A DNA stretch of 64,000 nt from Nannocystis bainbridge (GCF_028368995.1 NZ_JAQNDL010000003.1:896001-960000); one strand, 5' to 3'; counted from the stretch's first letter, positions 3,816 through 60,727 are shown. Notes: generated by a model from the sequence alone, not told the origin. Translations and numbers: made by a program.

Positions 3816-4808
3816 ATGGGCTCGCACCTGCCCGCGCGCCTGTTCGCGTTCGCCGTCGGCCTCGGCCTCGAAGAGACAGGGCTGCGCGCGCGCACCGGCC
3901 TCGGCGCCGCCGCGCTCGCCGATCCCGACGCGCGCGTGCCCCTGTCCGGCGTCTACGAACTGATCGAGGCCGTGTGCGAGCGCCTCGGCGACGTCGCCAG
4001 CCTGCGCTTCATCGCCGGCATCGAGGCCGGCGACCTCGACGCGCTCGGCTTCCTCCTCAACACCTGCCCCGACCTCGGCGTCGCGCTCGCCCGCTTCGTC
4101 GCCTTTCAGGCCCTCTACAACGACGGCGAGCGGTTCGAGGCGATCGACGTCGGCGACGACGCCGTGGCCCTGCGCTACACCCCGTTCGGCCCGCCCCGGC
4201 GCGCGCACGCGTGGATGGCCGAGGTCACCTTCCTCGATTTCCTCGTCAACGGCCCGCGCTGGCTCGGCCGCGATCTCGAGGTGCGCGCAGTCAGGTTGCG
4301 GCGCGTGCCGACCGAGGATCTCGAGCTGCGGCGCGCGCTCGGCCCGGTCGAGTTCGGGGCGCTTTGCGACGAGCTGGTGCTGCCGCGCGCGGCATTGCAG
4401 GTGCGCATGCCGGGCGCAGACCCGGCGATGCAGGCGTTCTTCGAGCGATTCGCCCGCGACCAGCTCGCGCGTCTGCCGAAGGATGGCAGCCTGCGGGCGC
4501 GCGTGCGGGCGCAGGTGGCCGCGCGGCTGCACCAGGGCGCGCCGACCCTGCTCGAGCTCGCGGAAGCCCTCGGGCTGGCCCCGCGGACCCTCCAGCGCAA
4601 GCTGCAGGCCGAGGGCGAGACGCTCGCGGCCCTGGTCGACGCCGTTCGCCGCGAGCGGGCCGCCGCGCTGCTCGCCGGCCCGCAGCCGCTCTCGGAGGTC
4701 TCGTACCGGCTCGGCTTCTCGGCCCCGAGCGCCTTCTTCCGCGCGTTCCGCCGCTGGACCGGCGAGACCCCCGAGGCCTACCGCGTCCGGGTCCGCACAG
4801 GTCCCTGA
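3816..4808 (+). CDS. AraC-family transcriptional regulator, divergent from the Rieske oxygenase
   Basis: C-terminal LAEALGLAPRTLQRKL...LGFSAPSAFFRAFRRWTGETP, with an N-terminal arabinose-binding-2-type domain. Confidence 0.9.
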   Translation: MGSHLPARLFAFAVGLGLEETGLRARTGLGAAALADPDARVPLSGVYELIEAVCERLGDVASLRFIAGIEAGDLDALGFLLNTCPDLGVALARFVAFQALYNDGERFEAIDVGDDAVALRYTPFGPPRRAHAWMAEVTFLDFLVNGPRWLGRDLEVRAVRLRRVPTEDLELRRALGPVEFGALCDELVLPRAALQVRMPGADPAMQAFFERFARDQLARLPKDGSLRARVRAQVAARLHQGAPTLLELAEALGLAPRTLQRKLQAEGETLAALVDAVRRERAAALLAGPQPLSEVSYRLGFSAPSAFFRAFRRWTGETPEAYRVRVRTGP

Positions 4809-4832
4809 GGACATGTCCCTCGGGACCTATCA
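4795..4832. repeat. 14-bp-period palindrome array, 3 units
   Basis: GCACAGGTCC / GGACATGTCC / GGACCTATCA, core C at 4798, 4812, 4826. Spans the araC stop codon. Confidence 0.65.
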
Positions 4833-4851
4833 TCATAGTCTCCGAGCGACC

Positions 4852-4895
4852 AAAAAACGATGACGCGGGCCGGGGTCCGGCGCCCGCGTCATCGT
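4852..4895 (-). terminator. Rho-independent terminator for the minus-strand gene 4934..5200
   Basis: 14-bp inverted repeat ACGATGACGCGGGC / GCCCGCGTCATCGT followed by a T-run on the minus strand. Confidence 0.8.
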
Positions 4896-4933
4896 CGATT
4901 CTTCAGTGAATCAGCGCCCTGGTCCCGTGGGGA

Positions 4934-5200
4934 TCAGGCCCGGGCGGCGAAGCGGCGGATCTCCTCGCGGAACCACGAGTCGGCCTCGTCGGTGAACTTG
5001 TAGTTCTCGCGGATGTACGCCATCGTGTCCTTCTCGACATCGGTGTACTTGCCGCCGTCGGTGACGGCGCCGATCAGCTCCTTGGCGTCGGTGAGGGAGA
5101 TGCGACCGTCGCCCTTGCCGGCGGTGGTCCGCTCGGCGATCTCGAGCATCTGCTTGTCGAACTTCTTGCCTTCGATGATCTTGTAGTACGTCTCGGACAT
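4934..5200 (-). CDS. Conserved small hypothetical protein (88 aa)
   Basis: MSETYYKIIEGKKFD...GKGDGRIS...YTDVEKDTMAYIRENYKFT. Typical coding codon usage, EF-hand-like GDGRIS loop. Confidence 0.8.
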   Translation of the reverse strand: MSETYYKIIEGKKFDKQMLEIAERTTAGKGDGRISLTDAKELIGAVTDGGKYTDVEKDTMAYIRENYKFTDEADSWFREEIRRFAARA

Positions 5201-5245
5201 GGTGCCGGGGACGATACCGAACATGGCGGGCTCATGCATGACCGC

Positions 5246-7380: not shown

Positions 7381-9063
7381 CTATTCGACGTCGAGCTCGA
7401 TGGTGTACTGCTGGTCGGCTCCGAGCAGGTAGCGATCGAACAGGGGCGAATAGCTCCGCACGTGCATGGTCTTGCCGTCGGGGAGGAGCTCGAGGAGGCG
7501 CAGGTAGCCCTCGCCGCCGAGCTCGCGCATCTGGTAGTTGGCGAGCATCTGGTGGACCACGTTGCCGCGGTCGTTGATGCTCTCGAGGTGACCGGTGCCG
7601 TCGCCGAGCACGTGGCCGTTGAGGGTCAGCACGAAGCGGTGGCGACGGACGAGCTTCTGCCACAGCTCCTCGCCGTCGTTGACCCCGCCGGGCGTGTTGT
7701 ACTCGTGCGGGTTGAAGTCCTGCGGCGACGTGCTGTCCTTGTGGTCGTAGCGGCGGTCGTTGTTGTTGAGATAGGCGTGGGTGACGAAGATGCCGAGGCG
7801 TTCGGGGTGCTGCTCCATCACCGTGTTGGCCCAGTCGACCACCTCGTCGCGCGGGCCCCACTCGAGCATCATGGCGATCCACTCGTGCCCGCCGGCGGTG
7901 AACAAATGATAGGTGTTGTCGAGCTTGCCCTTCTCGAACGCGCCGCCGAAATTGGGGCTCATCGCGGCGTCGTCGAAATCGAACCATTCGTTCATCTTGG
8001 TGCCGCGCGTCGAAGCGTCGCCCGACGGGCCATAGTCGTGGTTCCCGGGCACGATCCCGTACGGCACGACCCCGTCGAGCAGGCTCATCGAGCCGCTGGC
8101 ACGCTCCCACTCGAGCTCGGTGTTGTTGTTGACGATGTCGCCGAGGTGGAACGCGTAGGCGATGCCGAGCGCCTCGGCGTTGCGGGCGATCCACGCCGTC
8201 TGGGCGTCGAACACCCCGGGGTAGCGCAGCGAATAGACCTGGGTGTCGGGCAGCACCGCGAACACCGTCGAGCCTTCGGTGAACGGCAGCGACTGCGGCG
8301 GCGGCGTCGGCCGGATCGGCAGCGTCTCGCGCACGCACACGCCCTCGACGTGGGCGGCGAGGTTGGCGAAGAAGTTGGTGATGAACGCCTCCTGCTGCAG
8401 GTCCGAGCCCATCGGCGCGTCGAGCGGCAGCGTCGACAGCAAGATCCGCCCCTGGCCGTACGCGCCCTCGAGCAGCGCCCCGTTCGAGCCGTCGCCCGCG
8501 CCCGCTAGCACGATCTCGAAGCCGCCCTGCTCGACGAACGCCTCGCGCCCGAGCTCGCCGCGCCAGGCCAGCCGCCCGCCGTCGATCTCGACCCCCGCGA
8601 GCAGCGGATGGTCGGGCTCCAGCACCTCGAGCTCGACCAGCTTGGCGCGCGCCCGCCGGGCCGTGTGCGTGGTCGGCAAGAACGGCGGCTCGGCCTCGGC
8701 CTCGGCCGACTGCGCCAGCTCGAGCAGGACGTTGGCCTCGTCGACGAAGAAATACAGGTCGTCGGCGTAGCTCTGCATGTACCCGGGGTACTCGGGCAGC
8801 TCGGTGGCGCCCGAGCCGAACACGATCAGCCCGTCGAGGCCCCACGGCGAGCGGTCGAGCGGCAGCGGCTCGACGATGAAGCCGGCGAACTCGAGGCGCT
8901 CGCGCACGCCGTCGTAGTCGGGGGCCATCACCCACGCGCGCGGCTCCCCGTTGCCGCAAGGCAACACCTCGACGACTTCGGGCGGGGGCGCCACCTGGCA
9001 AGCCGCCGACGACACGTATCCACCGAGGAAGAGGCCCGCGCGCACGCTCCGACGAAACGCCAT
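7381..9063 (-). CDS. Calcineurin-like metallophosphoesterase, probable lipoprotein
   Basis: PDTQ, HLGD, GNHD, VTHAY and NGH motifs. Lipobox-like SAAC. Confidence 0.85.
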   Translation of the reverse strand: MAFRRSVRAGLFLGGYVSSAACQVAPPPEVVEVLPCGNGEPRAWVMAPDYDGVRERLEFAGFIVEPLPLDRSPWGLDGLIVFGSGATELPEYPGYMQSYADDLYFFVDEANVLLELAQSAEAEAEPPFLPTTHTARRARAKLVELEVLEPDHPLLAGVEIDGGRLAWRGELGREAFVEQGGFEIVLAGAGDGSNGALLEGAYGQGRILLSTLPLDAPMGSDLQQEAFITNFFANLAAHVEGVCVRETLPIRPTPPPQSLPFTEGSTVFAVLPDTQVYSLRYPGVFDAQTAWIARNAEALGIAYAFHLGDIVNNNTELEWERASGSMSLLDGVVPYGIVPGNHDYGPSGDASTRGTKMNEWFDFDDAAMSPNFGGAFEKGKLDNTYHLFTAGGHEWIAMMLEWGPRDEVVDWANTVMEQHPERLGIFVTHAYLNNNDRRYDHKDSTSPQDFNPHEYNTPGGVNDGEELWQKLVRRHRFVLTLNGHVLGDGTGHLESINDRGNVVHQMLANYQMRELGGEGYLRLLELLPDGKTMHVRSYSPLFDRYLLGADQQYTIELDVE

Positions 9064-9178
9064 GGACCGAGCCTATCAACGTCGTGCATCGGCACGGCGG
9101 AGGCTCTGCAATTTTTCGCCCGCGATTGTCACGACCACGTGCCGGCGGTGCACGCCGGCTCGCGGGTCGACCTTGCGC

Positions 9179-9736
9179 TTATGGAAGGATCGGCTGGGTC
9201 GTGCCCGACGGCGCGCGAATGACCCCACATGCCAGCCGCGCGCCCGAGTTGCCGGCCGGATCGGTGATCAGGTCGTCCGCATCGGCGTGCACCACCATCG
9301 ATCGTCCGAGCACCCCGCGCGGCCCGGCGTCGAGCGTGATGATGTCGGTGGTCATGGCGATCGCGGCCCGCCCGGCGCCGTCGGCCTCGATGTTGCCGAG
9401 GTCGCCGAGGTGGTGATCGGGGCCCTCTGGCCCGCCGTGGTGCTTGTGCTCGGGGTTGAAGTGCGGCCCGGCGCTGCTGCCGTCGGCGGCCGAGCAGTCG
9501 CCGAACTCATGGATGTGAAATCCGTGGGGCCCGGGCGTGAGGCCCTGGATCTGCGCGCGCACCCGCAGGCGATTGGCGGTGACGCGGGTGAACTGGACGG
9601 TCCCGCGCACGCCGCTGCCAGCCAGCGGCTCCAGCGTGGCGATGGCCGCTCCCTCCTCGCCGCTGGTCCAGCAGGCGAGCGACCCCAACAGCGATAGCAG
9701 CGACGAAGCGACGATGAGCGAGGCGAATGGGCGCAT
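9179..9736 (-). CDS. sodC: Cu/Zn superoxide dismutase
   Basis: HGFHIHEFGDC, GPHFNP, HHLGDLGNI, VVH, GNSGARLACGVI, with a signal peptide/lipobox. Confidence 0.95.
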   Translation of the reverse strand: MRPFASLIVASSLLSLLGSLACWTSGEEGAAIATLEPLAGSGVRGTVQFTRVTANRLRVRAQIQGLTPGPHGFHIHEFGDCSAADGSSAGPHFNPEHKHHGGPEGPDHHLGDLGNIEADGAGRAAIAMTTDIITLDAGPRGVLGRSMVVHADADDLITDPAGNSGARLACGVIRAPSGTTQPILP

Positions 9737-10034
9737 GGTGAAATCCTCGATCCGCAAGCGTGGGCCGACCTCCGACACCGGCAACCACGCGCCCCAGCCG
9801 ACCCCCGCGTATCCCCGGTCGTCCGCTCGCCCCACTCCATCGATTCCTGTAGAGACCGTCACGTCCCGCCGGCGGCGGCTCCGCGAGTCCGACGCCGGAG
9901 GGAGGATCTCCGCGAGCCTGCTCGGGCGCAGGCGCGGCCCCCGACACCGCCAAGGCCGCCCGGCCGGCCGCGGAATCTGGCCCTTACCGCGGCGAGCGCC
10001 GCGCCGCGGCATGGCCGCAGGTTTGGGTACAAAA

Positions 10035-10100
10035 GGACATGCTCGTTTGGACATGTCCTCGTGTACATGTTCCTTCAAACATGCCCGATCGGGCATATCT
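10035..10100. repeat. 14-bp-period palindrome array, 5 units
   Basis: Core C at 10038, 10052, 10066, 10080, 10094 (GGACATGCTC, GGACATGTCC, GTACATGTTC, AAACATGCCC, GGGCATATCT). Confidence 0.9.
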
Positions 10101-10177
10101 CCGGCATGGCGCCTCGCGGACGGCGCTCCTGGCGAAGCGGCCCCGGTTCGTCGTCGAGGCGCGGCCGCCTCCGCAGG

Positions 10178-10903
10178 TCAGCCGATGAGTTCGCCCCAGA
10201 ACGGGATCGCGGCGACGGCGTCGAAGTCGGTGGCGGACCGCTCGTATTCGACCCCGACGAAGCCATGCAGCTCGGCGAGCAGATAGTCGCGGAGGTCGTG
10301 GCCGTAGACGATGATGTCGCTCTGCCACACCGACAGCACCAGCGTCGGCCCCTCGGCGAGCACGTGGCGGTGACCGTAGATCGGCAGCAGCCGCGGTGCA
10401 CCGGCCACCAGCGCCGCCACGCGGGCGCGCCGCTGGTCCGCTTCGCCGGGCCGCGGGCCCCAGCTGTCGCGCCACAGCGCATTCGCCTCGACGTCGAATA
10501 CCAGCCCGTCGAGCACCTCGGCGAGCGCTGCCTGAATCGCCGCCTCGTCGCGCTGCCAGTGGTAGAAGCCGGGCTCTTCGCGCGGCACCAGGCGATCGTC
10601 GGCGGCGAACCCCGCGCCTCCCATCCACGGCTCGGTCGCGTGCAGCAGCTGCAAGAACGGGCGATGATCGGCCGGGAAGCGGACCGCGAATCGTCGCTCG
10701 ATCTGCGCCAGCTCGGCGTCGGACAGCCCGCCCGTCCACCGGGTCCCGCGGCGCCAGTGCGAGCCGCCCACGCCCCACGCCTCGTAGTCCGCGAGCGTCG
10801 GCTCCTCTTCCCGGCTCCACGCCTCCTCGGTCGCGGCGCCCAGCCACCGCAGGAACGGCTCGCCGAACTCGCCCGGGACCTCACTGCTGCGACGCTTCGC
10901 CAT
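10178..10903 (-). CDS. SMI1/KNR4 (SUKH) family protein
   Basis: GLSDAELAQIERRFAVRFPADHRPFL and APRLLPIYGHR...DIIVYGHDLRDYL. Confidence 0.8.
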   Translation of the reverse strand: MAKRRSSEVPGEFGEPFLRWLGAATEEAWSREEEPTLADYEAWGVGGSHWRRGTRWTGGLSDAELAQIERRFAVRFPADHRPFLQLLHATEPWMGGAGFAADDRLVPREEPGFYHWQRDEAAIQAALAEVLDGLVFDVEANALWRDSWGPRPGEADQRRARVAALVAGAPRLLPIYGHRHVLAEGPTLVLSVWQSDIIVYGHDLRDYLLAELHGFVGVEYERSATDFDAVAAIPFWGELIG

Positions 10904-11162
10904 CGATCGCTCGGGGGCAGCGTATCACACGGTCATCCGGCCATGATCTGCGGTGCCCCTGCGGGCAGCCGCGCGAGCATCCGCCGCGATGGCGGCGCCG
11001 TCTTTTTTCCAGAAGAGAGTCGATCCGCGGCTGCTCGCGCGGCCGCGCCGGGCACTTCGAGGCCGGCGGCCGCGAGCCACGACACGAGCACGAGGGAGCT
11101 GGCGCGCCTGATGAGCGACGTCTCGCGCCGGCGCGCGGCCCGTCGCAATCGGCCGATCCCGC

Positions 11163-12167
11163 TCAGGCTTTCTCGGCCGCGGCGACCAGCTCGGGCGCGA
11201 ACAGCTGCTGCAGGTCGGAGCCCTCGAGCTTGACGAAGCCGAGCTTCTGCGCGTCCTCGGCGCTGCGCACCAGGGCCTCCGGCACCGGGTCCGACGTGAA
11301 CTCGAGGTTCTGCCACGCGCGGTCGATCGTCGCCGGCGCCAGGGCCTTGCCCGTGACCTTCTTGATCGCCGCGTTGGCGACCTCCCGGGCCTCGCCGGCG
11401 TTCGCCGCGATCCACTTGTTGGCGGCCACGTGGCCGCGCACCAGCGCCTGCAGGGTGGCCCGGCGGGCCTCGATCTGGCCCTTGCGCGCCAGCAGCACCG
11501 TGGTCGTGTAGCGGCGCTCGGGCCACAGGTCGCGCTCGTCGATCAGCACCTTGCCGCCGCCCTCGAGGATCAGGCGGGTCGCCCACGGCTCGGGCACCCA
11601 CGCGCCGGCGATCTCGCCCGACTGGAAGCTCTCGAGCGTCTGTGCGTTCTCCTGCGGGGTGACGCTGACATCGCCGCCGCCGAACTCGTCGACCTTGAAG
11701 CCCTGGCCGATGAGCCATGTCCGGAGGGCCACGTCCTGGGTCCCGCCGAGCTGCGGGGTGCTGACCTTCTTGCCGCGCAGGTCGGCCGCGCCGGCGATCT
11801 CGGGGCGGACGACGAAGAACGCCCCGCCGGTGGCCGCGCCGGCGATCACCTTGACCTCGCCCTTCGACTTGACGAACGCGTTGACGGCCGGGTTGGGGCC
11901 GACGTACGTGGCATCGAGCGCCCCCGACAGCAGCGCCTCGATCGCCGCCGGGCCGGCGTTGAACGTGAACGTCTCCAGCGCCGTGCCCTCGGCCTGCAGC
12001 GCCTCGCGGAACAGCCCGCGCTCGACCCCGACCAGCGCGGTCGCGTGGGTGATGTTGGGGAAGTAGCCGAGCCGCAGCGCCCCGGTGTTCTCGCTCGACG
12101 GGCGACACGCGCCGGCGAGGGCGAGGGCGGGCAGGCTGGCGACGAAGCTGCGGCGGGTCAGGGGCAT
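11163..12167 (-). CDS. SsuA/NitT/TauT-type ABC substrate-binding lipoprotein
   Basis: RR/lipobox leader, LRLGYFPNITHATA, FNAGPAAIEAL, TPQLGGTQDVALR, WVPEPWATRL. Confidence 0.9.
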   Translation of the reverse strand: MPLTRRSFVASLPALALAGACRPSSENTGALRLGYFPNITHATALVGVERGLFREALQAEGTALETFTFNAGPAAIEALLSGALDATYVGPNPAVNAFVKSKGEVKVIAGAATGGAFFVVRPEIAGAADLRGKKVSTPQLGGTQDVALRTWLIGQGFKVDEFGGGDVSVTPQENAQTLESFQSGEIAGAWVPEPWATRLILEGGGKVLIDERDLWPERRYTTTVLLARKGQIEARRATLQALVRGHVAANKWIAANAGEAREVANAAIKKVTGKALAPATIDRAWQNLEFTSDPVPEALVRSAEDAQKLGFVKLEGSDLQQLFAPELVAAAEKA

Positions 12168-12270
12168 GGCGGAAGGAGGTTTACCATAATGGATATTCTC
12201 CAGCATACTGAACAACGTCGCCCTGGCCTTGCGACGCCCTCCTGCGCTACCTCTCGGCCCCCCGCGCGTC

Positions 12271-13506
12271 ATGCTCCAATTGCTCCTGCTCGCCGCGCTC
12301 GCCCCGCCGCCGCCCGCGCCTGCCCCCGATCCGGACCGCTTCTATCCGCCGGCGCGCGAGCACCTGCTGCTCGCCCCGGGCACCGTCGGCGACGGCCCGC
12401 TCAAGTTCACCGCGGGCAAGGGCCTCGAGGTCAAGAGCAAGGACGGCCGCTACGCCCTGTCGCTGAGCCTGCGCACCGGCTTCATGTACAGCGGGCGGCG
12501 CCAGGGCGGGGCGGCCTACGAGCACGCGTTCGAGATCCGGCGCCTGCGCCTGGTCTTCTCCGGCAACGTGTTCAGCAAGAGCATCAAGTACTTCGTGCAG
12601 CTGGCCGTGGCCCCGCGCGAGCTCAACTTCGTCGACGGGGTCGCGCGCGCCGGCCCGCTGCTCGACAACTACGTGGTGTTCGACCGCCTGCGCGACGCCA
12701 ACCTGCGGATCGGCATCTACCGGGTCATGTACACCCGCGAGCGCAACATCGCCGACATCAACCCGCTGCTGGTCGACCGCTCGCTGGCCAACGGCGAGTT
12801 CAACGTCGACCGCGACATCGGCCTCGACGTGCGCTCGGAGGACCTCGGCGGCCTCGGCAAATTGCGCTACTACGCCGGCGTCTTCATGGGCGACGGGCGC
12901 GATCAGAACCGGTTCAGCGACCCGGGCCTGATGTACACCGCGCGCCTCGATTTCCTGCCGTTCGGACTGTTCGACGACTACGAGGCCAGCGACCAGACCC
13001 GCCTGCGAAGGCCGAGGCTCAGCCTCGGGTTCGCCTACGCCTTCAACGACCGCGCCCGCAACAACCGCGGGGTGCTCGGCAGCCCGCCGGCCGACGGCGG
13101 TAGCACCAACTATCACAACCTCACCACCGACATGATGTTCAAGTGGGCCGGCTTCAGCCTCGAGGCCGCGTTCCTGTGGCGCGACGGCCGGCGCAACCCC
13201 GGCGGGGCGGTCGACGACATGGGCGCTCCGCTGCCCGTCGAGGCCGCGCGCAACGGTCGCGGCTGGATGATGCAGGCGGCCTTCCTCATCCCGCGGACCG
13301 GCCTCGAGCCCGCCATCCGCACCAGCGGGATCCGCGGACTCGGCGTGACCTCGATGCCCGACCGCAACGAGCTCGGCGGCGGCCTCAATTATTACTTCGC
13401 GGGTCACAACCTGAAGCTCCAGCTCGACTGGTTCCGCACCTGGGACCGCGGCGCCGCCGATCTGGCCGCCGACCTGGTCCGCCTGCAGCTTCAGGTCGCG
13501 CTGTGA
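12271..13506 (+). CDS. Outer-membrane porin (OprO/OprP phosphate-selective porin-like)
   Basis: FEIRRLRLVFSG, DRDIGL, and C-terminal GGGLNYYFAGHNLKLQLDW...LQLQVAL beta-barrel signature. Confidence 0.8.
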   Translation: MLQLLLLAALAPPPPAPAPDPDRFYPPAREHLLLAPGTVGDGPLKFTAGKGLEVKSKDGRYALSLSLRTGFMYSGRRQGGAAYEHAFEIRRLRLVFSGNVFSKSIKYFVQLAVAPRELNFVDGVARAGPLLDNYVVFDRLRDANLRIGIYRVMYTRERNIADINPLLVDRSLANGEFNVDRDIGLDVRSEDLGGLGKLRYYAGVFMGDGRDQNRFSDPGLMYTARLDFLPFGLFDDYEASDQTRLRRPRLSLGFAYAFNDRARNNRGVLGSPPADGGSTNYHNLTTDMMFKWAGFSLEAAFLWRDGRRNPGGAVDDMGAPLPVEAARNGRGWMMQAAFLIPRTGLEPAIRTSGIRGLGVTSMPDRNELGGGLNYYFAGHNLKLQLDWFRTWDRGAADLAADLVRLQLQVAL

Positions 13507-13651
13507 CCGGCGGCCCATCATCGTTTCGCGGTTCGAGAACGCCGTCAGCCTCGCCGCCCGGGCGCTGACGCGCCTTGACCCGCGCGCAGGTCCTGCCCAT
13601 ACGGCTGACGTGCAGGTGGTGCCGGTGGAGCTGGGCGACCGGTCATTCGCA

Positions 13652-13675
13652 GGACATGTCCCCGAGGACATGTCA
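13652..13675. repeat. 14-bp-period palindrome pair
   Basis: GGACATGTCC CCGA GGACATGTCA, immediately before the probable kinase start. Confidence 0.8.
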
Positions 13676-13678
13676 CGA

Positions 13679-18154: not shown

Positions 18155-18248
18155 CCCGATGACTGTTGGGACATGCCCTCCTGGGCATGTCCCAATCATC
18201 ATGTCCCTATCGACATGTCCTTTTGACCATGTCACATGGGGCATCTTC
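18155..18248. repeat. 14-bp-period palindrome array, 7 units, between convergent genes
   Basis: Cores at 18158, 18172, 18186, 18200, 18214, 18228, 18242. Confidence 0.9.
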
Positions 18249-19368: not shown

Positions 19369-19487
19369 TCACATGCCTCTTTAGCCATGTCCGAAGCGAC
19401 ATCTATGTAGAGCCCGGCACGTCCACTCCGCGCGGCCTCGACGCGGCGGCAACATGTCCACGAGGACATGTCTCTTCAGCCATGCAT
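19369..19487. repeat. Two 3-unit 14-bp-period palindrome sub-arrays
   Basis: Cores at 19372/19386/19400 and 19453/19467/19481. Begins directly after the stop at 19368. Confidence 0.8.
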
Positions 19488-20605: not shown

Positions 20606-20685
20606 GGGCATGTCCGTTCGGACATGCCCCTCAGAAAATGTTCCGAAGGACATGGCCGTTCGCGCATGTCCTTCAAGCCATCCAG
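20606..20685. repeat. 14-bp-period palindrome array, 6 units, between convergent genes
   Basis: Cores at 20609, 20623, 20637, 20651, 20665, 20679. Confidence 0.9.
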
Positions 20686-23655: not shown

Positions 23656-23667
23656 GAACGACAGCCG

Positions 23668-25455: not shown

Positions 25456-25535
25456 GCGCATGTCCGCTCGAACATGCCCTCGAGGACATGCTCGATCGAG
25501 CATGTCCTCCAAGACATGCCCTTTAAACCATGCGC
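25456..25535. repeat. 14-bp-period palindrome array, 6 units
   Basis: Cores at 25459, 25473, 25487, 25501, 25515, 25529. Starts 3 bp after the stop at 25452. Confidence 0.92.
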
Positions 25536-43834: not shown

Positions 43835-46340
43835 CAGCCCCGGAGAAGAACAGCCCCGCCCCGCGCAGCAGCCGCGGCGCCTCGGCGGTCGTGGCGATCG
43901 CGTGCGCGCTCGCTTCGTCGGTCGGCGCCGGCAGCCGCGCGTCGCGGCCGATCGCCAGCAGCGCCCCGTCGAAGCTCTGCGCGAGGCGGGCCGCCGCCAC
44001 GCAGGCGTCCCCCCGCAGGTGCGTCGCCAGCCGCGCCACGCTCGCCGCGTCCGCGCGCCAGCTCTGCAGCTGCTCCGCGAGCTGGCCCCGCCGCGCCGCC
44101 GTGAAGCGCTCCGGCGTCACCCCGCGCTTGTGCCAGAGGCGCACGATCGTCTGCGCCCCCGGCAATGTCGGCACCTGCGCCGGCTCACCCAGCCACGCCA
44201 TCGCTGCCAGCAATTCGTGGAGCGACGCCCCGGCCGGATCGAGCACGATCGCCAGGCCGCCGCGGATCAGCTCCGCCGCCAGCGCCAGGCGGAATCGCCG
44301 CTCGCGTGGGTCCTGGCGCACGATCGGCGGATACACCACGATCGTCGGCTCGCGCTCGTTGCGAATGCCCACACCGCCCTCGGGTCCGCCGCGGCCGACG
44401 CGGACCTGCAGCCGCGATCCCGTGCGCGCGCGCAGCCACGCCAGCGTCGGCTCGACCTGCGCCAGCACCTGCGCCGTCACCTCCGCGTCCGCCGGCACCA
44501 GCTCGCGCGCGGCACGGATCCCCGCCGTCGCCGCCGTCAACGCCTGCAAGCTCCCGCGGATCGCCTCACGCGGCTCGCCGACGTCCTCGCTCGCCGCCGT
44601 CGGCGTCTCCTCGCCCGCCTCACCGACCTCGATCTCGACCCCTGCGATCGCGCACCCTGGCAGCAGGAAACTCGCCACCTGTCGCAGCGCTCGCGCGCGC
44701 CCCGGCTCACCTGTCTCTTCGACCATCTCTGCCAGCGCCAGCACCGCGCCCGGCTCGAGCGAGCGGGCCGCCCGCGCTTGCAGCTCCGTGCGCACCCGCC
44801 TGCGATCCGCGCGCCCCGGGCCACCCGCGATCGCCTCGCCTGGCAGCCCCTCGCGCGCCCGGTGCAGCGCCGCAGCCGCGATCTCGCTCGCCGCTCGCTC
44901 CGCCTCGGCTACGTCGCGCCCGCAGCGGCGGCCCGCCGCGGCCACCCGCGCCTGCAGCTCGGCCGGCTCGCACCACGCTCGCTCGCACCGCTCATCTGCC
45001 GCCAGCGCCGCGTCGACGGCCGCCTCGACCTGCTCGCTCGCCACCTGCGGATCGCCGGCCCGCGCGATCGCCAGCGCTCGCCACGCCGCCGCCTGCGCCG
45101 CCGGCCCCCCGCTCCACGCCATGTCCTCGACGCCCGATCGCGCTCGCCCGCCCCACGACATGTCCTCGAGGACAGCCCGCGCACGACCTCCGGCCCCCAG
45201 CAGCTCCGCCTCGGCCAGCGCTCGCGCCACCCGCCGCCGCGACCGCGCCGCCGGCGGGCCCGGCATTCGCTCGAGCGTCGTCAGCCCGCGCACCACCGCC
45301 TCCGCCTCGCCGGCGCGCGCCTGGGCCACGATCACCCGCCACCACGCCTCCGGGTCGTCGGGCGCCGCCGCCAGCCACGCCCGCACCGCCGCTCCTGCCC
45401 CCGCGCGGTCGCGGAAGCGCAGCAGCTCCGCCTGCACCTGCGCCAGCGCCCGCGTCAGCCGCCGCGCCCCCGGGTGCGTCGGCGCCGGCGCGTAGCTCAG
45501 GGCCGCCAGCGCCGCCGCGCGATCACCTGCCCGCAGCGCCGCCCGCAGCTCGGCCAGCGGATCGTCCAGTCCTTCGGACATGTCTTCTCGCGCATGTCCC
45601 TCGGGAAATGTCCGAAAGGGCATGTCCTCACGAACATGTCCTTGTGGACCTGACCCATGGGCCACGTCCGCCAGCACCACCCGCAGCCCGCGGCCTTCCC
45701 CGCGCACCCGCGTCACCGCCAGCCCGAGCGTGCGCGGCGGGCTCGTCCCGGCCGCGCGGAACGCCCGGCGCAGCAGCCACTCCGGCCGGACCCGCAGCGT
45801 GTCCGCCGCGACCGTCACCACCCCCTCGCGCCCGAGCGCCAGCCCGCGGGCCACCGCCGACCACAGGGCCGTCCCCGAGGGCGCCAGCGGTCCGGTCGCC
45901 CACACGCGACGGGCGCGCACGCAGATCTCTCCTGCCTCCGCCGTCGCCGTGAGCTCGATCTGGGCCAGCGCCGGCCAGCCGTCGTCGCGCGGCCCGCTCA
46001 GCGTCAGCACCGCCGCCTCGCCGGCGAGATCTACGCCGACCTGCTCGATCGGCCAGCCGCCGATCGGCAGCCCGCGCAGCGACTGCGCCGCCGCCGCGAG
46101 CGCCTCCGCGGTCACCTCCAGGCGGGCCTCGAGCGCGCGCCAGCGGCCGTCCCGCAGCCCCGCCGTCGCGCCCTGCGGCTCGCCGATCGGCTCGGCGATC
46201 AGGCCCGTCAGGCGCAGCCCGGGCGCCAGGTCGGCCGGGCCGGCGTGGAGCCGGACCCGCGGGCCACCTGGCCCCTGGGCCAGCTCGAGGCGGAGGCCGA
46301 GGCCGCTCGCCTGTCCGTCACGACCGGTCGCGGACGCCAT
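43821..46340 (-). CDS. Large Ala/Arg-rich hypothetical protein with TPR-like helices, carrying an in-frame repeat array
   Basis: Fills the gap between the co-oriented ppiD-like and GNAT genes. TPR-like helical segments. Confidence 0.65.
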   Translation of the reverse strand: MASATGRDGQASGLGLRLELAQGPGGPRVRLHAGPADLAPGLRLTGLIAEPIGEPQGATAGLRDGRWRALEARLEVTAEALAAAAQSLRGLPIGGWPIEQVGVDLAGEAAVLTLSGPRDDGWPALAQIELTATAEAGEICVRARRVWATGPLAPSGTALWSAVARGLALGREGVVTVAADTLRVRPEWLLRRAFRAAGTSPPRTLGLAVTRVRGEGRGLRVVLADVAHGSGPQGHVREDMPFRTFPEGHAREDMSEGLDDPLAELRAALRAGDRAAALAALSYAPAPTHPGARRLTRALAQVQAELLRFRDRAGAGAAVRAWLAAAPDDPEAWWRVIVAQARAGEAEAVVRGLTTLERMPGPPAARSRRRVARALAEAELLGAGGRARAVLEDMSWGGRARSGVEDMAWSGGPAAQAAAWRALAIARAGDPQVASEQVEAAVDAALAADERCERAWCEPAELQARVAAAGRRCGRDVAEAERAASEIAAAALHRAREGLPGEAIAGGPGRADRRRVRTELQARAARSLEPGAVLALAEMVEETGEPGRARALRQVASFLLPGCAIAGVEIEVGEAGEETPTAASEDVGEPREAIRGSLQALTAATAGIRAARELVPADAEVTAQVLAQVEPTLAWLRARTGSRLQVRVGRGGPEGGVGIRNEREPTIVVYPPIVRQDPRERRFRLALAAELIRGGLAIVLDPAGASLHELLAAMAWLGEPAQVPTLPGAQTIVRLWHKRGVTPERFTAARRGQLAEQLQSWRADAASVARLATHLRGDACVAAARLAQSFDGALLAIGRDARLPAPTDEASAHAIATTAEAPRLLRGAGLFFSGAGEYV
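45576..45669. repeat. 14-bp-period palindrome array, 7 units, inside ORF 43821..46340
   Basis: Cores at 45579, 45593, 45607, 45621, 45635, 45649, 45663. Translates as GPQGHVREDMPFRTFPEGHAREDMSE. Confidence 0.9.
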
Positions 46341-50387: not shown

Positions 50388-50467
50388 CGACATGTCCGCA
50401 AGGACATGTCCATGAGGACAGCGCTGATCGTACATGTCTCTTCGGACATGGCCCTTCGAGCATCCTC
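50388..50467. repeat. 14-bp-period palindrome array, 6 units, between mreC and mreD, preceded by (ATGCCC)x4
   Basis: Cores at 50391, 50405, 50419, 50433, 50447, 50461. Hexamer run at about 50336-50359. Confidence 0.88.
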
Positions 50468-50496: not shown

Positions 50497-51096
50497 ATGC
50501 GCCCCCTGATCTACATCGCCCTCGGCTGGCTGCTCCTGGCCGCCGTCGGCGGCCTCGGGCAGACGCTCGGGCTCACGATCATGCTGCCGGCCACCTCGGC
50601 CGCGCTGGTCGCCCACGTCGTGTTCGGGCGCGAGCTCTCGCTGCCGAGCGGCCTGCTGGTCGCCGTCAGCCTCGGCTACCTCGAGGACCTGGCCCAGGGG
50701 ACGCCCATCGGCCTGCTGTCGCTGGCCTATGGCCTGTCGTGCTGCGCCCTCGTGTGGTCGAGCCGGCGCCTCGCCGTCGAGGGCCCGATCGCGCGCGCCC
50801 TCGCGGCCGGGGTCGCCGCCGCCCTCGTCGACCTCGTCACCTTCGCCCTCCTCTTCTCCGTCCGCTTCCGCCTCGGCGTCGACACCGAGGCCCTCGTCAC
50901 CGGCCTCCTGCAGGCCCGCTGGCACGCCCTCGCCACCGTGCTCGCCGCCCCTGGCGTGTTCGTGCTCGCCGAGCTGGCCCTCGGCGCCTGGGACCGCGCC
51001 TTCGGCCGCCGGCCCCGCCCCGCTCGCCGCTCGCCGCTGCAGGCGCGCAGCGCCGGCTCCACCCTCGAGGGCGACGGCCCGTCCGATTGGACATGA
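50497..51096 (+). CDS. mreD: Rod shape-determining protein MreD
   Basis: Hydrophobic protein with LGYLEDLAQGTPIG, located between mreC and mrdA. Confidence 0.85.
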   Translation: MRPLIYIALGWLLLAAVGGLGQTLGLTIMLPATSAALVAHVVFGRELSLPSGLLVAVSLGYLEDLAQGTPIGLLSLAYGLSCCALVWSSRRLAVEGPIARALAAGVAAALVDLVTFALLFSVRFRLGVDTEALVTGLLQARWHALATVLAAPGVFVLAELALGAWDRAFGRRPRPARRSPLQARSAGSTLEGDGPSDWT

Positions 51097-54521: not shown

Positions 54522-54587
54522 CCGCTGCTTGTCCCTTCCGGGGTCGCGGCGCCGCGACTCGACCCGAGGGACATGTCCTTCGGGCCA

Positions 54588-54955
54588 TCATGTCTCGCAC
54601 CCAGTGTCGCTGATCTCGCTGCAGTAGATGACGATGGTGCCGTCTTCTGCCAGTTCGGCGCCCTCGAGGTCGGCCAGGTAGCAGATAGACTCGTACTCGA
54701 TGCATCGGTCGAGGGCCTTCGCGTCGCACCTGGACGGGTAAGCGAGCACGCCGCGCAGCTCTCGGGGATCGGCTCGCAACCGCGGCAGTTGCAATTCGGG
54801 TCGTCGCCGGTCGACAGGGTACAGAACTCCCCCCCGGCGCACGAATCGCAGGGATTCGCCCCTCCGGCTGCGATCGCCGAGGGGCCTCTTCGACCCGGAC
54901 AACCTGGGATCAGCACGGCGAGCAGCGCGACGATCGAGATCCGGCAAATCAACAT
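54588..54955 (-). pseudogene. Apparently frameshifted small Cys-rich lipoprotein
   Basis: MLICRISIVALLAVLIPGC...CEPIPESCA is in one frame and YPSRCDAKALDRCIEYESICYLAD...GCET* is in another. The shift is near 54740-54755. Confidence 0.55.
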
Positions 54956-58205: not shown

Positions 58206-58327
58206 TCAAATGTCCCTTGAGACATGCTCCCACGAACATGTCCTCTACGACATTTCCTGTTCAACATGTCCTCACAGACATGTCTTGTCCAGCGCTCTGT
58301 CTCGGACATGTCCCGCAAGACATGCCC
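58206..58327. repeat. 14-bp-period palindrome array, 9 units, between convergent genes
   Basis: Cores at 58209, 58223, 58237, 58251, 58265, 58279, (58293 degenerate), 58307, 58321. Confidence 0.93.
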
Positions 58328-58336: not shown

Positions 58337-58714
58337 CTACCCTGCCAGCAGCCGCCCGATCCGCGACCCCAGCGCCACCATCAGCGCCCCGCCGCCGACG
58401 TGCAGCCCCAGCTGCCACGCCAGCGGCGCCCAGCGGGCCTCGCCGGCCAGCTCGACCGTCAGCAGCGCGAACGAGCTGTAGGTCGTGAACCCGCCGAGCA
58501 GCCCCGCCACCGCGATCGCCCGCGCCGGGCCTTGCGGCAGGATTGGCGCCAGCACCCCGATCGCCAGGCAGCCGATCAGGTTGACCGCCAGCGTGCCCGC
58601 GTACGGCAGCGTCGCCTCGGCCCAGCGGTCGACCCGCAGGGCCAGCACGAACCGCAGGCACACCCCGCAGCCGCCGGCCGCGAACAGCCCCGCCCACTGC
58701 CACGCGCTCGTCAT
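58337..58714 (-). CDS. crcB: Fluoride efflux channel CrcB/FluC
   Basis: GG.G..LRF, GTLAVNLIGC, GLLGGFTTYSSF. Confidence 0.93.
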   Translation of the reverse strand: MTSAWQWAGLFAAGGCGVCLRFVLALRVDRWAEATLPYAGTLAVNLIGCLAIGVLAPILPQGPARAIAVAGLLGGFTTYSSFALLTVELAGEARWAPLAWQLGLHVGGGALMVALGSRIGRLLAG

Positions 58715-58716
58715 CC

Positions 58717-59835
58717 TCAGCCGGCCTTGCCGCTCGCGCCCACGGCCCCCGTCACCGACGCGCTGGCCTTGAACGACACGTTGATGCTGACCGACGCCGT
58801 CGCCACCGCCGACGCCGCCGCCGTCACGCACGCGATCGCTTGCTCGCCCGCGCCCTGCAGCTTGCCGCGCAGCTCGCCGCCGAGGCGGACCAGCGTCTGC
58901 ACCTCGCCGCCGATCTCCCGCCCCAGCTTGACCTGCGCCGCGATCAACACCGGCAGGTTGGCCGACAGCGACGCCACCAGCTTGCCCAGCGCCTGCGCCT
59001 CGCTCGAGGTCTTCACCGAGAGCTTCGGCTGCGAGCAGCGGGCCGAGAACTTCACGCTCGCCTCGCAGCTCGCCTTGCAGTCGGCGTCGACCTTCGGCGG
59101 CGTCACCCGGCCCTCGCACTTCGGCGCCTGCCAGGTGCCCTGGCACGACGCGTGGCACGTCGCGTCGCACTGGCCGGTGCACGTCCCCTCGCACTTGCCG
59201 GCGCAGCGGCCCTGCGCGTCCTTGACCGCGCACTCGCCCTGGCACTGGCCCGAGCAGCGGCCGTCGCACTGGCCCTTGCACGTGCCCTGGCAGCGGCCCG
59301 ACAGCTTGGCCGGCGTGCACTGGGCCACGATCTCGCCGGGGTCGACGTCGACCTTGCAGCGGCCGTCGCAGCGGGCCCGCGCCGACGCGTCGACGTCGCA
59401 CTTCGGCGGCGTGTAGTCGGCCTCGATCTTGACCCCGCCCTTCAGCATCCCCTGCACCCGGGCCGACACCGCCCCGCACGCCGCCTGCGACGCCGTCGAG
59501 TTCTGGTTCGGCTGCATCGCCGCCGGGTTGACGCCGATGTCGCCGCCGATCCTGCGGCAGGCGGAGGTGACCTCGCTGTCCCACTGCATCGCCAGCCGCT
59601 GCAGATCCTTGGCCGCCTGCACGAACGCCCCGACCTTGGCGTTGAGCTCGGCCTTGGCGGTGTACTTGACCCCGAGCGCGTCACCGCCGCTCGCCAGCGC
59701 CGGGCAGGCCACCGCGCCGGCGACGTTGGCGATGTTGGAGGTCGTCTGACCTGTCCCCGAGGACAGGAAGTTGCACGCGCCGGCGACGGCGGCCGCGGCG
59801 AAGATCACGAGGGCGGCCCGCGAGGTCTGCGACAT
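58717..59835 (-). CDS. Myxobacterial Cys-rich lipoprotein with CxGxC repeats and helical flanks
   Basis: Lipobox AGAC and CQGTCKGQCDGRCSGQCQGEC...CAGKCEGTCTGQC. Confidence 0.85.
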   Translation of the reverse strand: MSQTSRAALVIFAAAAVAGACNFLSSGTGQTTSNIANVAGAVACPALASGGDALGVKYTAKAELNAKVGAFVQAAKDLQRLAMQWDSEVTSACRRIGGDIGVNPAAMQPNQNSTASQAACGAVSARVQGMLKGGVKIEADYTPPKCDVDASARARCDGRCKVDVDPGEIVAQCTPAKLSGRCQGTCKGQCDGRCSGQCQGECAVKDAQGRCAGKCEGTCTGQCDATCHASCQGTWQAPKCEGRVTPPKVDADCKASCEASVKFSARCSQPKLSVKTSSEAQALGKLVASLSANLPVLIAAQVKLGREIGGEVQTLVRLGGELRGKLQGAGEQAIACVTAAASAVATASVSINVSFKASASVTGAVGASGKAG

Positions 59836-59903
59836 GGCCGCGAGTGTCCCAGGTCGGCCCGAGCGGCGCAATCGCGCCGCCCTCGTTCACGGCGTTCCGC
59901 GGG

Positions 59904-60392
59904 TCAGCACGAGCCGACCGGGCAGCTGAAGCGCCCGCCGCCGCAGTCCGACGCCGCCACCGAGCTGCCGTCGGCCGCGGCGCAGCGGACATCGCAGTTG
60001 CCGACCGACTCGCAGGTGACCTCGCCGCTGACCATCACGACCTCGCAGTTCGAGAGGTTGCTGCAGTCGACCGCGCAGTCGGTCCCGCAGGCCACGTCGC
60101 AGTTGCTCACCGCATCGCAGTCGACCGAGCAGCCGTCGCCACACTCGAGGTCGCAGTTGGAGTTGTTGTGACACGACAGCTCGCAGAGGTCGCCGCAGCC
60201 GGCGTCGCAGTTGCTGACGTCGTGGCACTCGGCCGCGCAGCCCTCGGCGGGGCAATCGAGCAGGCAGTTGTCGCCGCCGCTGCAGCCGCAGGTCGTCCCG
60301 GCGCAGTAGCCCGGGGCCGGCGGCGGACCGCAAGAGCCGAGGGCCATCGACGAGACGAACAGGAACAGCCCGAGGAGCGACGTGCCGCGCAT
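59904..60392 (-). CDS. Small Cys-repeat lipoprotein
   Basis: Lipobox LGSC and about 18-aa repeats C...C..(S)NC...CG. Confidence 0.8.
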   Translation of the reverse strand: MRGTSLLGLFLFVSSMALGSCGPPPAPGYCAGTTCGCSGGDNCLLDCPAEGCAAECHDVSNCDAGCGDLCELSCHNNSNCDLECGDGCSVDCDAVSNCDVACGTDCAVDCSNLSNCEVVMVSGEVTCESVGNCDVRCAAADGSSVAASDCGGGRFSCPVGSC

Positions 60393-60703
60393 GCGGCGGA
60401 CCCTACCACGACCGTTCCGGCGCGCACGCCCGGGTTCGCTCGCGTCGCGCCGGCCCCGCGTCGCCGCCAGCGTGCGCGCCGTGAGAGGCTCGCCGACCCG
60501 CTGCCGCCCGTGACCCCCGACCTGCTCGCCGGCCCGCTGCGGAGCGCCCTGAGCCACGCCGCGCGCGTGCGAGCCGGGCCGCCCGGACCCCGCGCCCCAC
60601 GGCGGCGACGAGGCCTGGAATCCGCCGCCGCGGCTCGCGATGCCCGCCGCTTGCACGACCCCGGCCCGGCCGCCACAGAGCCGGCGTCTCGCCGGTGATT
60701 CGC

Positions 60704-60727
60704 CGACATGTCCCTTCGGACATCTCG
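60704..60727. repeat. 14-bp-period palindrome pair upstream of the lectin gene
   Basis: CGACATGTCC CTTC GGACATCTCG. Confidence 0.65.

Follow-up and report, generated by a model that had tools for sequence, protein, structure and literature searches.

REP elements are imperfect palindromes of 20-40 bp that form one stem-loop and carry GTAG/CGTC at one end, and REPIN-RAYT systems include a single-copy Y1 (IS200/IS605-type) RAYT transposase. In BIME-2, palindromic units stand in tandem at fixed spacing and are bound and cut by DNA gyrase; both gyrase and IHF act on BIMEs. Tandem short boxes with an exact step are also known from the MetJ met-boxes and the ParR/omega iterons, where cooperative dimers touch along the helix. 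Rickettsia palindromic elements (RPE) are single elements of 100-150 bp that can lie in frame within protein-coding genes, the p53 response element consists of RRRCWWGYYY twice with a spacer of 0-13 bp, and the STRR heptamers of cyanobacteria are short repeats abundant in intergenic regions. MITEs have terminal inverted repeats that match an IS element, together with a target-site duplication. The TAACTGA heptamers of Beggiatoaceae are described as abundant intergenic short direct repeats, and a post-transcriptional action has been proposed for heptamers of this type (PMC4679880). REP elements number hundreds to thousands per genome and occur almost only behind genes, next to convergent or co-directional ORFs and rarely inside genes; REPs and REPINs are inherited vertically, with lineage-specific sequence and abundance (PMC3733652).

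The DNA analyzed here (the window) is a stretch of 64,000 nt of the soil bacterium Nannocystis bainbridge (GCF_028368995.1 NZ_JAQNDL010000003.1:896001-960000), whose whole genome comprises 11 Mb. A preceding sequence-only reading had proposed that a CATG-centered 10-bp palindrome forms dispersed arrays with an exact 14-bp period. These arrays are real. All eight long arrays it had listed are present where it had placed them (Table 1), and a fully degenerate unit (cagcgctctg, ~58290) indeed stays in phase within the longest of them. The nine short pairs or triplets fared less well: the doublet at 13652 has two exact CATG cores, those at 4795, 53199, 54569 and 60704 combine one exact core with a decayed in-phase neighbor (CAGG, CATC or CCTA replacing CATG), and those at 39889, 42663, 55254 and 59747 contain no exact CATG and are individually indistinguishable from chance.

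Table 1. CATG arrays and shorter relics in the window, with their surroundings and their counterparts in related genomes.
Coordinates	Feature	Gene context	Further observations
4795..4832	relic, 3 units (gcacaggtcc / GGACATGTCC / ggacctatca)	first spacer holds TGA stop of + gene ending 4808	
10035..10100	array, ~5 units in phase		4/5 relatives have 2-3 in-phase CATG at the orthologous position
13652..13675	doublet GGACATGTCC-ccga-GGACATGTCA		
18155..18248	array, 5 units with exact core and decayed ones at the ends	convergent stops 18128 (+), 18270 (-)	perfect 13-bp inverted repeat formed by units 1 and 2; missing behind the left-gene ortholog in 5/5 relatives, with a synteny break at the site
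19369..19487	two short sub-arrays separated by 81 bp and mutually out of phase (2 and 3 exact cores)		
20606..20685	array, good-good-decayed-good-good	convergent stops 20594 (+), 20742 (-)	array at the equivalent place in 4/5 relatives
25456..25535	array, 6 consecutive exact-core units	3 bp past stop 25452, between two + genes	positional ortholog in 5/5 relatives, each with 2-4 exact cores
45576..45669	array, 6 unit slots	in frame within ORF 43821-46340 (-)	reading frame open through the array in 6/6 genomes; one relative 42 bp shorter (3 units, 14 codons)
50388..50467	array, good-good-decayed-good-good	between mreC (Pfam MreC, stop 50336) and start of a conserved ORF	real array in 3/5 relatives
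54569..54592	one perfect unit plus decayed neighbor		
58206..58327	array, 9 unit slots, 6 exact cores	fills 147-bp gap; convergent stops 58190 (+), ~58338 (-)	relatives have 1-2 additional genes at the site and only 0-4 units
60704..60727	doublet CGACATGTCC-cttc-ggacatctcg		

The window contains 26 occurrences of CATG-N10-CATG, as compared to 0.48±0.67 (largest value 3) in 100 dinucleotide-preserving shuffles, and RRRCATGYYY matches 25 times versus 2.56±1.56. Pairs of CATG are separated by 14 bp in these 26 cases, by 28 bp in 17 and by 42 bp in 18, while adjacent distances are represented by 0-2 pairs. The sharp 14-bp peak expected for a dispersed family is present genome-wide, with 3736 pairs at 14 bp (background ~100), 2073 at 28 bp and 1586 at 42 bp; the counts at 13 bp (72) and 15 bp (262) are both background. 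The family amounts to 988 arrays with ~4,900 units of the consensus GGRCATGYCC, each followed by a free 4-bp spacer. Units are joined head to tail at a step of exactly 14 bp, usually 3-7 per array and at most 21. The spacer sequence is nearly free, 224 of the 256 possible 4-mers being used, and positions outside the 10-mer are nearly without information. The CATG core is much more conserved than flanks and spacers, whether units of this genome or different species are compared. Unit and spacer statistics are strand-symmetric and show no orientation relative to the gene. Array ends are ragged and decaying, and long arrays contain 42- and 70-bp higher-order repeats; together with the 42-bp length difference between orthologous copies, these repeats indicate that arrays gain and lose length by duplication or loss of 14n-bp blocks. 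Plain perfect 14-bp tandem repeats are also found as single loci in unrelated genomes.

The arrays lie at the 3' ends of genes. The claim that long arrays start shortly past a stop codon and frequently lie between convergent genes is true genome-wide: of the 988 arrays, 428 are located in convergent, 305 in tandem and 35 in divergent gaps, which corresponds to occupied fractions of 428/1237 for convergent versus 35/1120 for divergent gaps. They begin 0-20 bp past the stop codon, with a median distance of 15 bp, and 593 of the 989 arrays beginning at most 300 bp from a gene end start at -13 to +25 bp of the stop; in tandem gaps, the next start lies a median of 252 bp away. Arrays in convergent gaps are not longer than those in tandem gaps (5.26 versus ~4.9 units), and copies within ORFs are rare (at most 48/988). 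Intrinsic terminators consist of a GC-rich hairpin followed by a U-tract, and this class was rejected, as a T-run is absent from the array consensus. Among gene ends with an array, 87 of 1373 are followed by terminator-like sites, as are 125 of 3816 other ends, and only 4 of 102 tRNA genes are followed by an array, canonical hairpin-plus-T terminators being located behind many of them. Since arrays are found within a likely operon (between mreC and the following ORF) and also, in frame, inside an ORF conserved in six species, they are not strong terminators. CRISPR arrays, which combine 23-50-bp repeats and unique 26-72-bp spacers with a leader and cas genes, were likewise rejected on account of the 10-bp repeat, the 4-bp spacer and the ~1,000 loci.

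A search of 430 genomes from other genera did not detect the family, which is seen in Nannocystis only. The four-core pattern has 869 occurrences in the source genome and 409-527 in each of five large congeners, whereas a 9.1-Mb congener (contigs up to 1 Mb) contains only 13 such patterns and 22 doublets, so that the copy number varies ~60-fold among good Nannocystis assemblies. The doublets of this congener are near-perfect; of 20 fetched loci, 12 lie at most 100 bp from an ORF end and six between convergent ORF ends. Many arrays are positional orthologs between species, and a comparison of orthologous loci for presence and absence, as had been proposed, showed arrays kept at some sites and gained or lost at others, some of them at rearrangement junctions. 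Across 30 ordered genome pairs, the identity of orthologous arrays is 0.89 in the core, 0.70 in the flank triplets, 0.54 in the spacer and 0.76 in the flanking 30 bp. At three orthologous loci (5-6 genomes) the register is kept without indels, one 42-bp difference excepted.

Any two neighboring units can pair on either strand, because the unit is self-complementary; the folded doublet (24 bp) has a stem of 10-13 bp and a 4-nt loop formed by the spacer. All seven folds calculated gave z-scores of -3.9 to -6.0. Signals of such hairpins are weak but specific. An excess of Watson-Crick matches between units is observed at lag 1 only (z = 3.1-4.4 at four of six variable positions; none at lags 2-4), and neighbors complementary at 10/10 positions make up 3.9% of cases versus 1.4% of random unit pairs. 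The hairpin-forming potential is mostly low: on average, neighbors would form ~7/10 Watson-Crick pairs, only ~13% would reach at least 9, and no pairing register between them was seen. The complementarity continues outward into the spacers (0.479 versus 0.279, z = 10), which could have arisen by template-switch correction of quasi-palindromes rather than by selection. On the sense strand, G.U combinations outnumber A.C (1199 versus 886) in both the ++ and -- contexts against the convergent baseline; this bias is absent in spacers and control gaps, and transcription-linked mutation could partly cause it. In addition, the T/A skew reverses from one half of convergent arrays to the other. Hairpins alone do not explain why 13- and 15-bp steps are totally missing, since a hairpin would hardly be destabilized by 3- or 5-nt loops.

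The sequence-only reading had also argued from helical phase for a dimeric binding protein. The phase argument gained some support, as unit quality correlates at lag 3, i.e., 42 bp (r = 0.23-0.26), and not at lag 2 (~0), and the order good-good-bad-good-good is found in 34 arrays versus 7 and 12 for its permutations; for the dimeric binder, no candidate protein was found. Roles as nucleoid organiser or segregation site are without support. With regard to families already described, Rfam gave no matches at gathering score in the 64-kb window, the REP tag is missing, and the RAYT/Y1 transposase domain PF01797 had no match in the source genome (90.5% complete), while the control search was positive in 6 of 14 reference genomes. 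We found no description of the Nannocystis arrays in print.

We consider it about an even bet (probability roughly 0.5) that the arrays are a new, strictly periodic, genus-restricted REP/BIME-like 3'-end element, a transcribed hairpin stack probably read by a sequence-specific factor. Arrays would be transcribed from either side as the 3' untranslated end, and the resulting bidirectional hairpin stack may mark or protect transcript ends. The invariant CATG core, the strict 14-bp step and the 42-bp superperiod, corresponding to four helical turns, suggest an added layer in which a sequence-specific, probably dimeric host factor would read each unit in a phase-sensitive manner, as gyrase and IHF do on BIMEs.

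It is possible, if doubtful, that the arrays function at the level of DNA alone, with genus-specific protein dimers occupying each palindrome 14 bp apart and touching each other in a spiral of three units per four turns. Such a spiral would block transcription or serve as a boundary or topological site (e.g., a gyrase target) between convergent genes, and RNA hairpins would be incidental. The palindromic and unoriented unit, the step without excess at 13 or 15 bp, the superperiod and the far better conservation of CATG cores, which are retained even within an ORF, all agree with this explanation, as does the placement between convergent genes, where positive supercoils accumulate. However, sites of a host chromatin or termination protein would not normally differ ~60-fold in copy number between congeners, the search for a candidate protein found none, and neither the spacer complementarity around doublets nor the lag-1 complementarity of units nor the sense-strand G.U bias is predicted; a boundary would also not need to start 0-20 bp past a stop codon. 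That the arrays are cooperative landing pads on which Nannocystis-specific dimers, one per CATG palindrome, polymerise at the 14-bp step with three dimers per four turns appears unlikely. If true, a protein sheath would lie behind about one-fifth of the genes, insulating convergent units by stopping RNA polymerase or trapping supercoils, and this would represent a type of chromatin boundary in bacteria and a terminator needing neither U-tract nor Rho.

Rather unlikely, too, is an origin as selfish or neutral repeats, in which a hairpin-forming doublet spread in an ancestor of the large-genome Nannocystis, grows by slippage and survives at 3' ends, where it does little harm. The variable copy number within the genus, gain and loss at orthologous sites including rearrangement junctions, the 42- and 70-bp duplications and the rare in-frame copies within ORFs are in line with such an origin, and purifying selection alone would deplete divergent gaps. 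Neutral decay, however, would affect core and spacer equally, yet their identities differ (0.89 versus 0.54), and the 14-bp register persists without single-base indels although spacers are near saturation. Moreover, no REP-type transposase was found, and the arrays hug the upstream stop instead of spreading over the long tandem gaps. Recent slippage is rare in any case: identical spacers account for 3.6-3.9% of within-array pairs at lags 1-3 versus 1.2% between arrays, which bears out the view that phase is kept while sequence diverges. Slippage minisatellites have units that are near-identical, inter-unit bases included. We therefore rejected ordinary minisatellites, in which a 14-bp unit would have multiplied by recent replication slippage, a highly improbable explanation for which single-locus perfect repeats in unrelated genomes and recent block duplications in a few Nannocystis arrays speak. 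It is already contradicted by positional orthology between species and by spacer divergence, per-base spacer identity being almost as low within arrays (0.31-0.32) as between them (0.27), and one consensus is common to ~1,000 loci and several species.

Comparison with the known systems agrees best with a REP/BIME-like 3'-end element. The doublet GGACATGTCC-N4-GGACATGTCC formally fits the p53 response element, but the Nannocystis arrays are bacterial, lie at 3' ends and contain up to 21 units; no p53 domain was found, although control genomes were silent too, and the likeness, rightly regarded before as formal only, is a convergence of a flexible CATG palindrome. Like RPE, the array at 45576-45669 lies in frame inside an ORF, whereas in-ORF copies are otherwise rare and the arrays consist of short units. 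Tandem short palindromes at an exact step are shared with MetJ, ParR and omega sites, which serve one or few promoters or centromeres, while the arrays are found at the 3' ends of ~1,000 genes and avoid promoter gaps. With the heptamers of Beggiatoaceae and of cyanobacteria they share the dispersal of a very short unit in many intergenic arrays within one lineage; those heptamers are abutting, spacerless and non-palindromic, in contrast to the palindromic unit with a variable spacer at gene ends. Unlike REP, the Nannocystis unit measures 10 bp and forms a perfect palindrome by itself, so that orientation is meaningless, the period is a strict 14 bp head to tail with a free 4-bp spacer, the GTAG/CGTC end tag was not found in the arrays, and, unlike in REPIN-RAYT systems, the search of the genome found no RAYT. 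Nevertheless, the arrays resemble REP as many vertically inherited, lineage-specific short palindromes behind convergent and co-directional genes and seldom inside them, REPIN doublets in that neighboring units may fold into a hairpin, and BIME-2 in their clustering at fixed spacing. The REP/BIME-like alternative, secondary in the sequence-only reading, thus outperforms its headline of an undescribed DNA-organising or regulatory system: the copy-number range, the lag-1 complementarity reaching into spacers and the excess of G.U over A.C place the element nearer to the known REP-like repeats at 3' ends than to a system of an entirely new category.

All eight long arrays of in-phase CATG palindromes described in the sequence-only reading were found at their reported positions, and the sequences given for 58206-58327 and 18155-18248 were confirmed by direct reading. 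The nine short sites held up in part: site 13652 has two exact cores, and the other eight are weaker, four having one exact core with a decayed in-phase neighbor and four lacking an exact CATG. The expected sharp 14-bp peak in CATG spacing is present both in the window and genome-wide. Within the window, 26 pairs of CATG are separated by 14 bp, 17 by 28 bp and 18 by 42 bp, with 0-2 pairs at adjacent distances; CATG-N10-CATG occurs 26 times versus 0.48 ± 0.67 times in 100 dinucleotide-preserving shuffles, and RRRCATGYYY 25 times versus 2.56 ± 1.56. The assembly holding the window (11.05 Mb, five contigs, 71.5% G+C) contains 3736 pairs at 14 bp, 2073 at 28, 1586 at 42 and 751 at 56, the background being ∼100 at ordinary distances and ∼290 at multiples of three; the counts at 13 bp (72) and 15 bp (262) are both at background level. 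Minor genome-wide excesses at 6-8, 20-22 and 34-36 bp, also at 7, 21, 35 and 49 bp, arise because half-shifted units overlap, as in GGACATGTCCATGAGG (window 50402-50417). The full palindrome GGRCATGYCC was counted 1771 times, compared with ∼117 expected from base composition. Chains of in-phase cores number 2338 with at least two cores and 988 with at least three; extension of these 988 arrays by a position weight matrix resulted in 4932 unit slots, 4758 of them above the 99th background percentile. Array lengths are mainly five (263 arrays), four (249), six (199) and three units (152), with a maximum of 21.

The unit consensus is G-G-R-C-A-T-G-Y-C-C, with a nearly invariant core and flanks conserved to ∼70%, followed by an almost free 4-bp spacer (224 of the 256 possible 4-mers were seen, A at the first and T at the last position being mildly avoided). 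All unit and spacer statistics are strand-symmetric, and a genome-wide search found no orientation of arrays relative to the upstream gene. On the plus strand ACATGC is in excess over GCATGT, with a sign that switches with replication GC skew along the contigs, and this bias is therefore mutational. The skew itself changes sign (about ±0.08) near 1.5 Mb on contig C3 and near 4.4-4.5 Mb on contig C1, which are likely positions of a replication origin or terminus. Genome-wide, CATG has most commonly decayed to CAGG or CCTG, which fits AT-to-GC pressure in a genome of ∼72% G+C.

Genes were called with a crude script of our own (GC3, ORFs of at least 90 codons, first start codon), giving 6386 genes that cover 77% of the genome, with exact stops, over-extended starts and short genes missed. 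By these calls, 428 of the 988 arrays lie in convergent, 305 in co-directional and 35 in divergent gaps, two at contig ends and 218 inside called ORFs, many of the latter probably reflecting over-extended starts. The proportion of occupied gaps is 428/1237 for convergent, 305/3418 for tandem and 35/1120 for divergent gene pairs. The earlier statement that arrays begin soon after stop codons, often between convergent genes, thus applies genome-wide, the array edge being a median of 15 bp from the upstream stop (quartiles 6-45); in tandem gaps, the median distance to the next start is 252 bp. Roughly 15% of the genes (989/6386) have an array of at least three in-phase cores starting within 300 bp past the stop, and 593 of these 989 arrays begin at -13 to +25 bp from it, the first unit often including TGA. 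When arrays of at least two units within 150 bp are counted, roughly one in four evaluated gene ends (1373/5189) carries one. Of the arrays between convergent genes, 78% have one or both stops no farther than 25 bp away, and 23% have both stops this close; a genome-wide comparison did not find them to be twice as long as tandem-gap arrays. Arrays in divergent gaps mostly occupy long stretches without called genes, where the caller probably missed genes, and inspection of 36 cases yielded no candidate for a neighboring cognate gene. A preference of in-ORF arrays for multiples of three units was rejected, residues 0/1/2 being represented 20/18/10 times (48 of the 988 arrays).

To follow the arrays at orthologous loci, 80 kb syntenic with the window was compared from each of five congeners.

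Features of the window and of contig C2, with their state in five congeners where compared
Feature	Position	Observation
Array	10035	Same place in 4/5 relatives
Tandem repeats	16977-17249	63 bp x 2.1 copies and 37 bp x 4.7 copies (CCGCGGACTCGCATCCGACCCGCATCGACGACCTCGC), within 16520-17537, a stretch without called gene (own caller); unrelated to CATG arrays
Segment of 2.6 kb	18130-20742	SnoaL-like gene (-), ALK/LTK glycine-rich-domain gene (+); missing from the syntenic place in five congeners, SnoaL-like gene elsewhere in four of these; flanked by the arrays at 18155-18248 and 20606-20685
Array	18155-18248 (18169)	Absent in 5/5 relatives; gene order changes exactly there
Two arrays	19369-19487	Inside the 2.6-kb segment
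Array	20606-20685	Same place in 4/5 relatives
Array	25456	Same place in 5/5 relatives
Decayed cores	39889, 55254, 59747	CAGG or CCTG for CATG
ORF	43821-46340 (-)	Long, without Pfam match
Array	45576-45669	Same place in 5/5 relatives; encodes a linker such as GHVREDMPFRTFPEGHAREDMSEG
Intergenic region	50336-50500	Array with mreC (Pfam MreC) on one side and a conserved ORF start (ATGCGCCCCCTGATCTAC...) on the other; PBP2-type gene next
Array	50388	Same place in 3/5 relatives
Array	58206-58327	Nine units; relatives have 1-2 extra genes plus 0-4 units instead
tRNA cluster	C2:2556665-2559233 (outside the window)	∼26 tRNA genes in 2.6 kb predicted by aragorn; linkers A+T-richer than the genome

MAFFT alignments of three loci from 5-6 genomes retained the 14-bp register without an indel inside arrays, except for a single 42-bp (three-unit) difference, and spacers differed at most positions. 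Between genomes (30 ordered pairs, not independent), identity was 0.889 for cores (n = 1948), 0.699 for flank triplets (n = 2905), 0.541 for spacers (n = 1493), 0.764 for 30 bp of sequence flanking the arrays and 0.883 for the remainder. The 1-bp gaps in pairwise BLAST alignments occurred inside and outside arrays alike, resulting from lenient penalties in diverged stretches. These comparisons indicate that cores and phase are constrained and that spacers drift. Arrays may also mark rearrangement junctions.

The array at 45576-45669 lies in frame within a long ORF on the minus strand, the frame is open across it in all six genomes, and the CATG cores persist; one relative is shorter there by exactly 42 bp, corresponding to three units or 14 codons. 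The array behind mreC precedes an ORF that is followed by a PBP2-type gene and is therefore probably located inside a cell-shape operon.

Four in-phase cores were found 869 times in the genome of the window, 409-527 times in five large congeners and 1-13 times in five with smaller genomes. For four of the latter, the low counts may stem partly from fragmented assembly, since several contigs of four DNA runs from soil metagenomes, aligned with window 8000-27000 (short pieces only, with no listed indel inside arrays), stop at arrays. A practical consequence is that arrays break short-read assemblies. The pattern was absent from 30 genomes representing 30 other genera of the family and class. Of 400 additional genomes sampled from the phylum, 15 had 1-5 four-core matches; those listed were plain simple tandem repeats and one AT-rich chance match, and none of them combined GGR/YCC flanks with varied spacers. 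When one genome per prokaryote species was searched, the four-unit pattern occurred at no fewer than 79 loci, 75 of those listed being titled as Nannocystis species or MAG and the other four listed being perfect tandem repeats with identical spacers. The arrays mark the genus Nannocystis. In one 9.1-Mb congener, whose contigs reach 1.07 Mb, only 22 doublets were counted, nearly perfect GGACATGTCC-N4-GGACATGTCC; among the 20 loci fetched, the doublet is at most 100 bp from a GC3-supported ORF end in 12 and between convergent ORF ends in 6. The likely older state is therefore a hairpin-capable doublet present in few copies at the ends of genes, from which expansion in the species with large genomes led to thousands of units.

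As an alternative to protein binding, the sequence-only reading had proposed that neighboring units pair as hairpins, and this proposal is borne out in part. Of the six variable positions, four show more Watson-Crick complementarity between adjacent units than expected (z = 3.1-4.4), with no excess at unit distances of 2, 3 or 4, and self-complementarity of the -1/+4 pair within units is below expectation (z = -8.6). Fully complementary neighbors account for 3.9% of adjacent pairs compared with 1.4% of random unit pairs. Where neighbors are at least 9/10 complementary, complementarity extends into their outer spacers (0.479 versus 0.279; z = 10) and to the next bases (0.413, 0.402), and the effect fades at the fourth base. 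Seven RNA folds were predicted from four array-bearing stretches between genes, three of them on both strands; the folds contain doublet hairpins, with z-scores of -3.9 to -6.0. However, the pairing signals are weak, with a mean of ∼7/10 pairs between neighbors, and no even/odd pairing register was found along arrays. In co-directional gaps, G.U exceeds A.C in gene orientation (1199 versus 886), and the plus-strand G.U/A.C ratio is 1.08 in ++ and 0.58 in -- contexts, the convergent baseline being 0.85; this bias therefore follows transcription and not replication. The sense-strand skew of G over C is positive in flank triplets (+0.039) and negative in spacers (-0.022) and in 3' gaps free of arrays (-0.027), and T/A skew is opposite in the two halves of convergent arrays (+0.042 versus -0.054).

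Hairpins alone probably do not explain the arrays, as signaled by the strict 14-bp step, a 42-bp superperiod and the cores kept inside the ORF array. A 10-bp stem would tolerate a loop of 3 or 5 nt at little cost, yet 13- and 15-bp steps are not found among the 3736 links. Unit quality is correlated at a distance of three units (r = 0.23-0.26) and ∼0 at two, and the order good-good-bad-good-good is seen in 34 arrays versus 7 and 12 for its permutations. Since 42 bp correspond to four helical turns, the superperiod points to reading on duplex DNA.

Canonical hairpin-plus-T terminators are present after many tRNA genes, and arrays follow 4 of the 102 predicted tRNAs. Behind protein genes such terminators are rare (3-6% of gene ends evaluated), with terminator-like sites at 125/3816 array-free and 87/1373 array-bearing gene ends. 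The terminators after many single tRNAs share the tail hairpin-TTTGGTC(G)C (e.g., cttcttgttttggtcgc, ttcttgctttggtcc), suggesting a conserved motif of terminator tails; the tRNA cluster on contig C2 is a tRNA gene array of possibly mobile origin. The array consensus contains no U-tract, and a role in Rho loading (rut sites) was discarded, the sense strand of the units being as rich in G as in C. No Rfam family was detected in the 64-kb window, and a search for a p53-like domain found none, its control being likewise silent.

Taken together, we give a probability of roughly 0.5 to the arrays being a REP/BIME-like element at the 3' ends of genes that forms hairpin stacks on transcript ends and is additionally recognized by a phase-sensitive reader. 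An array transcribed from either side would offer stacks of alternative hairpins acting on transcript ends, and a sequence-specific, phase-sensitive reader would explain the constancy of the CATG core and of the 14-bp step. A purely DNA-level protein spiral on the arrays, to be weighed with the superperiod on one side and the transcription-following G.U bias on the other, seems rather unlikely to us. Selfish DNA without function, for which the expansion in large genomes and the constraint on cores have to be set side by side, is slightly less likely; we infer in any case some route by which arrays came to new loci. Higher-order repeats of 42 or 70 bp in some long arrays indicate array growth by blocks of 14n bp. 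Plain slippage is highly improbable as an explanation, since only 3.6-3.9% of spacers one to three units apart within an array are identical, versus 1.2% between arrays, and recent slippage must therefore be rare.

The organism of the window is a high-GC producer of natural products. With canonical terminators so rare behind its protein genes, the arrays are the obvious candidate for how transcripts end here. The exact 14-bp step and the invariant core persist across species and imply a putative reader molecule; congeners differ widely in the number of arrays, which provides a way to find it. In the engineering of myxobacteria, the arrays could be used as compact insulators that work in both directions.

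No description of these arrays was found in the literature searched, which included few subscription journals and had the genome papers of the genus outside its scope, and myxobacteria are unmentioned in the main text of a REP survey (PMC3733652). REPs as surveyed there resemble the arrays in placement and population behavior (PMC3733652). Two defining features of REPs are missing in this family, as the array consensus has no GTAG or CGTC tag and no Y1/RAYT transposase was found in the genome by a search with a positive control. The arrays differ from REPs further in their self-palindromic 10-mer, their strict 14-bp step and their free spacers.
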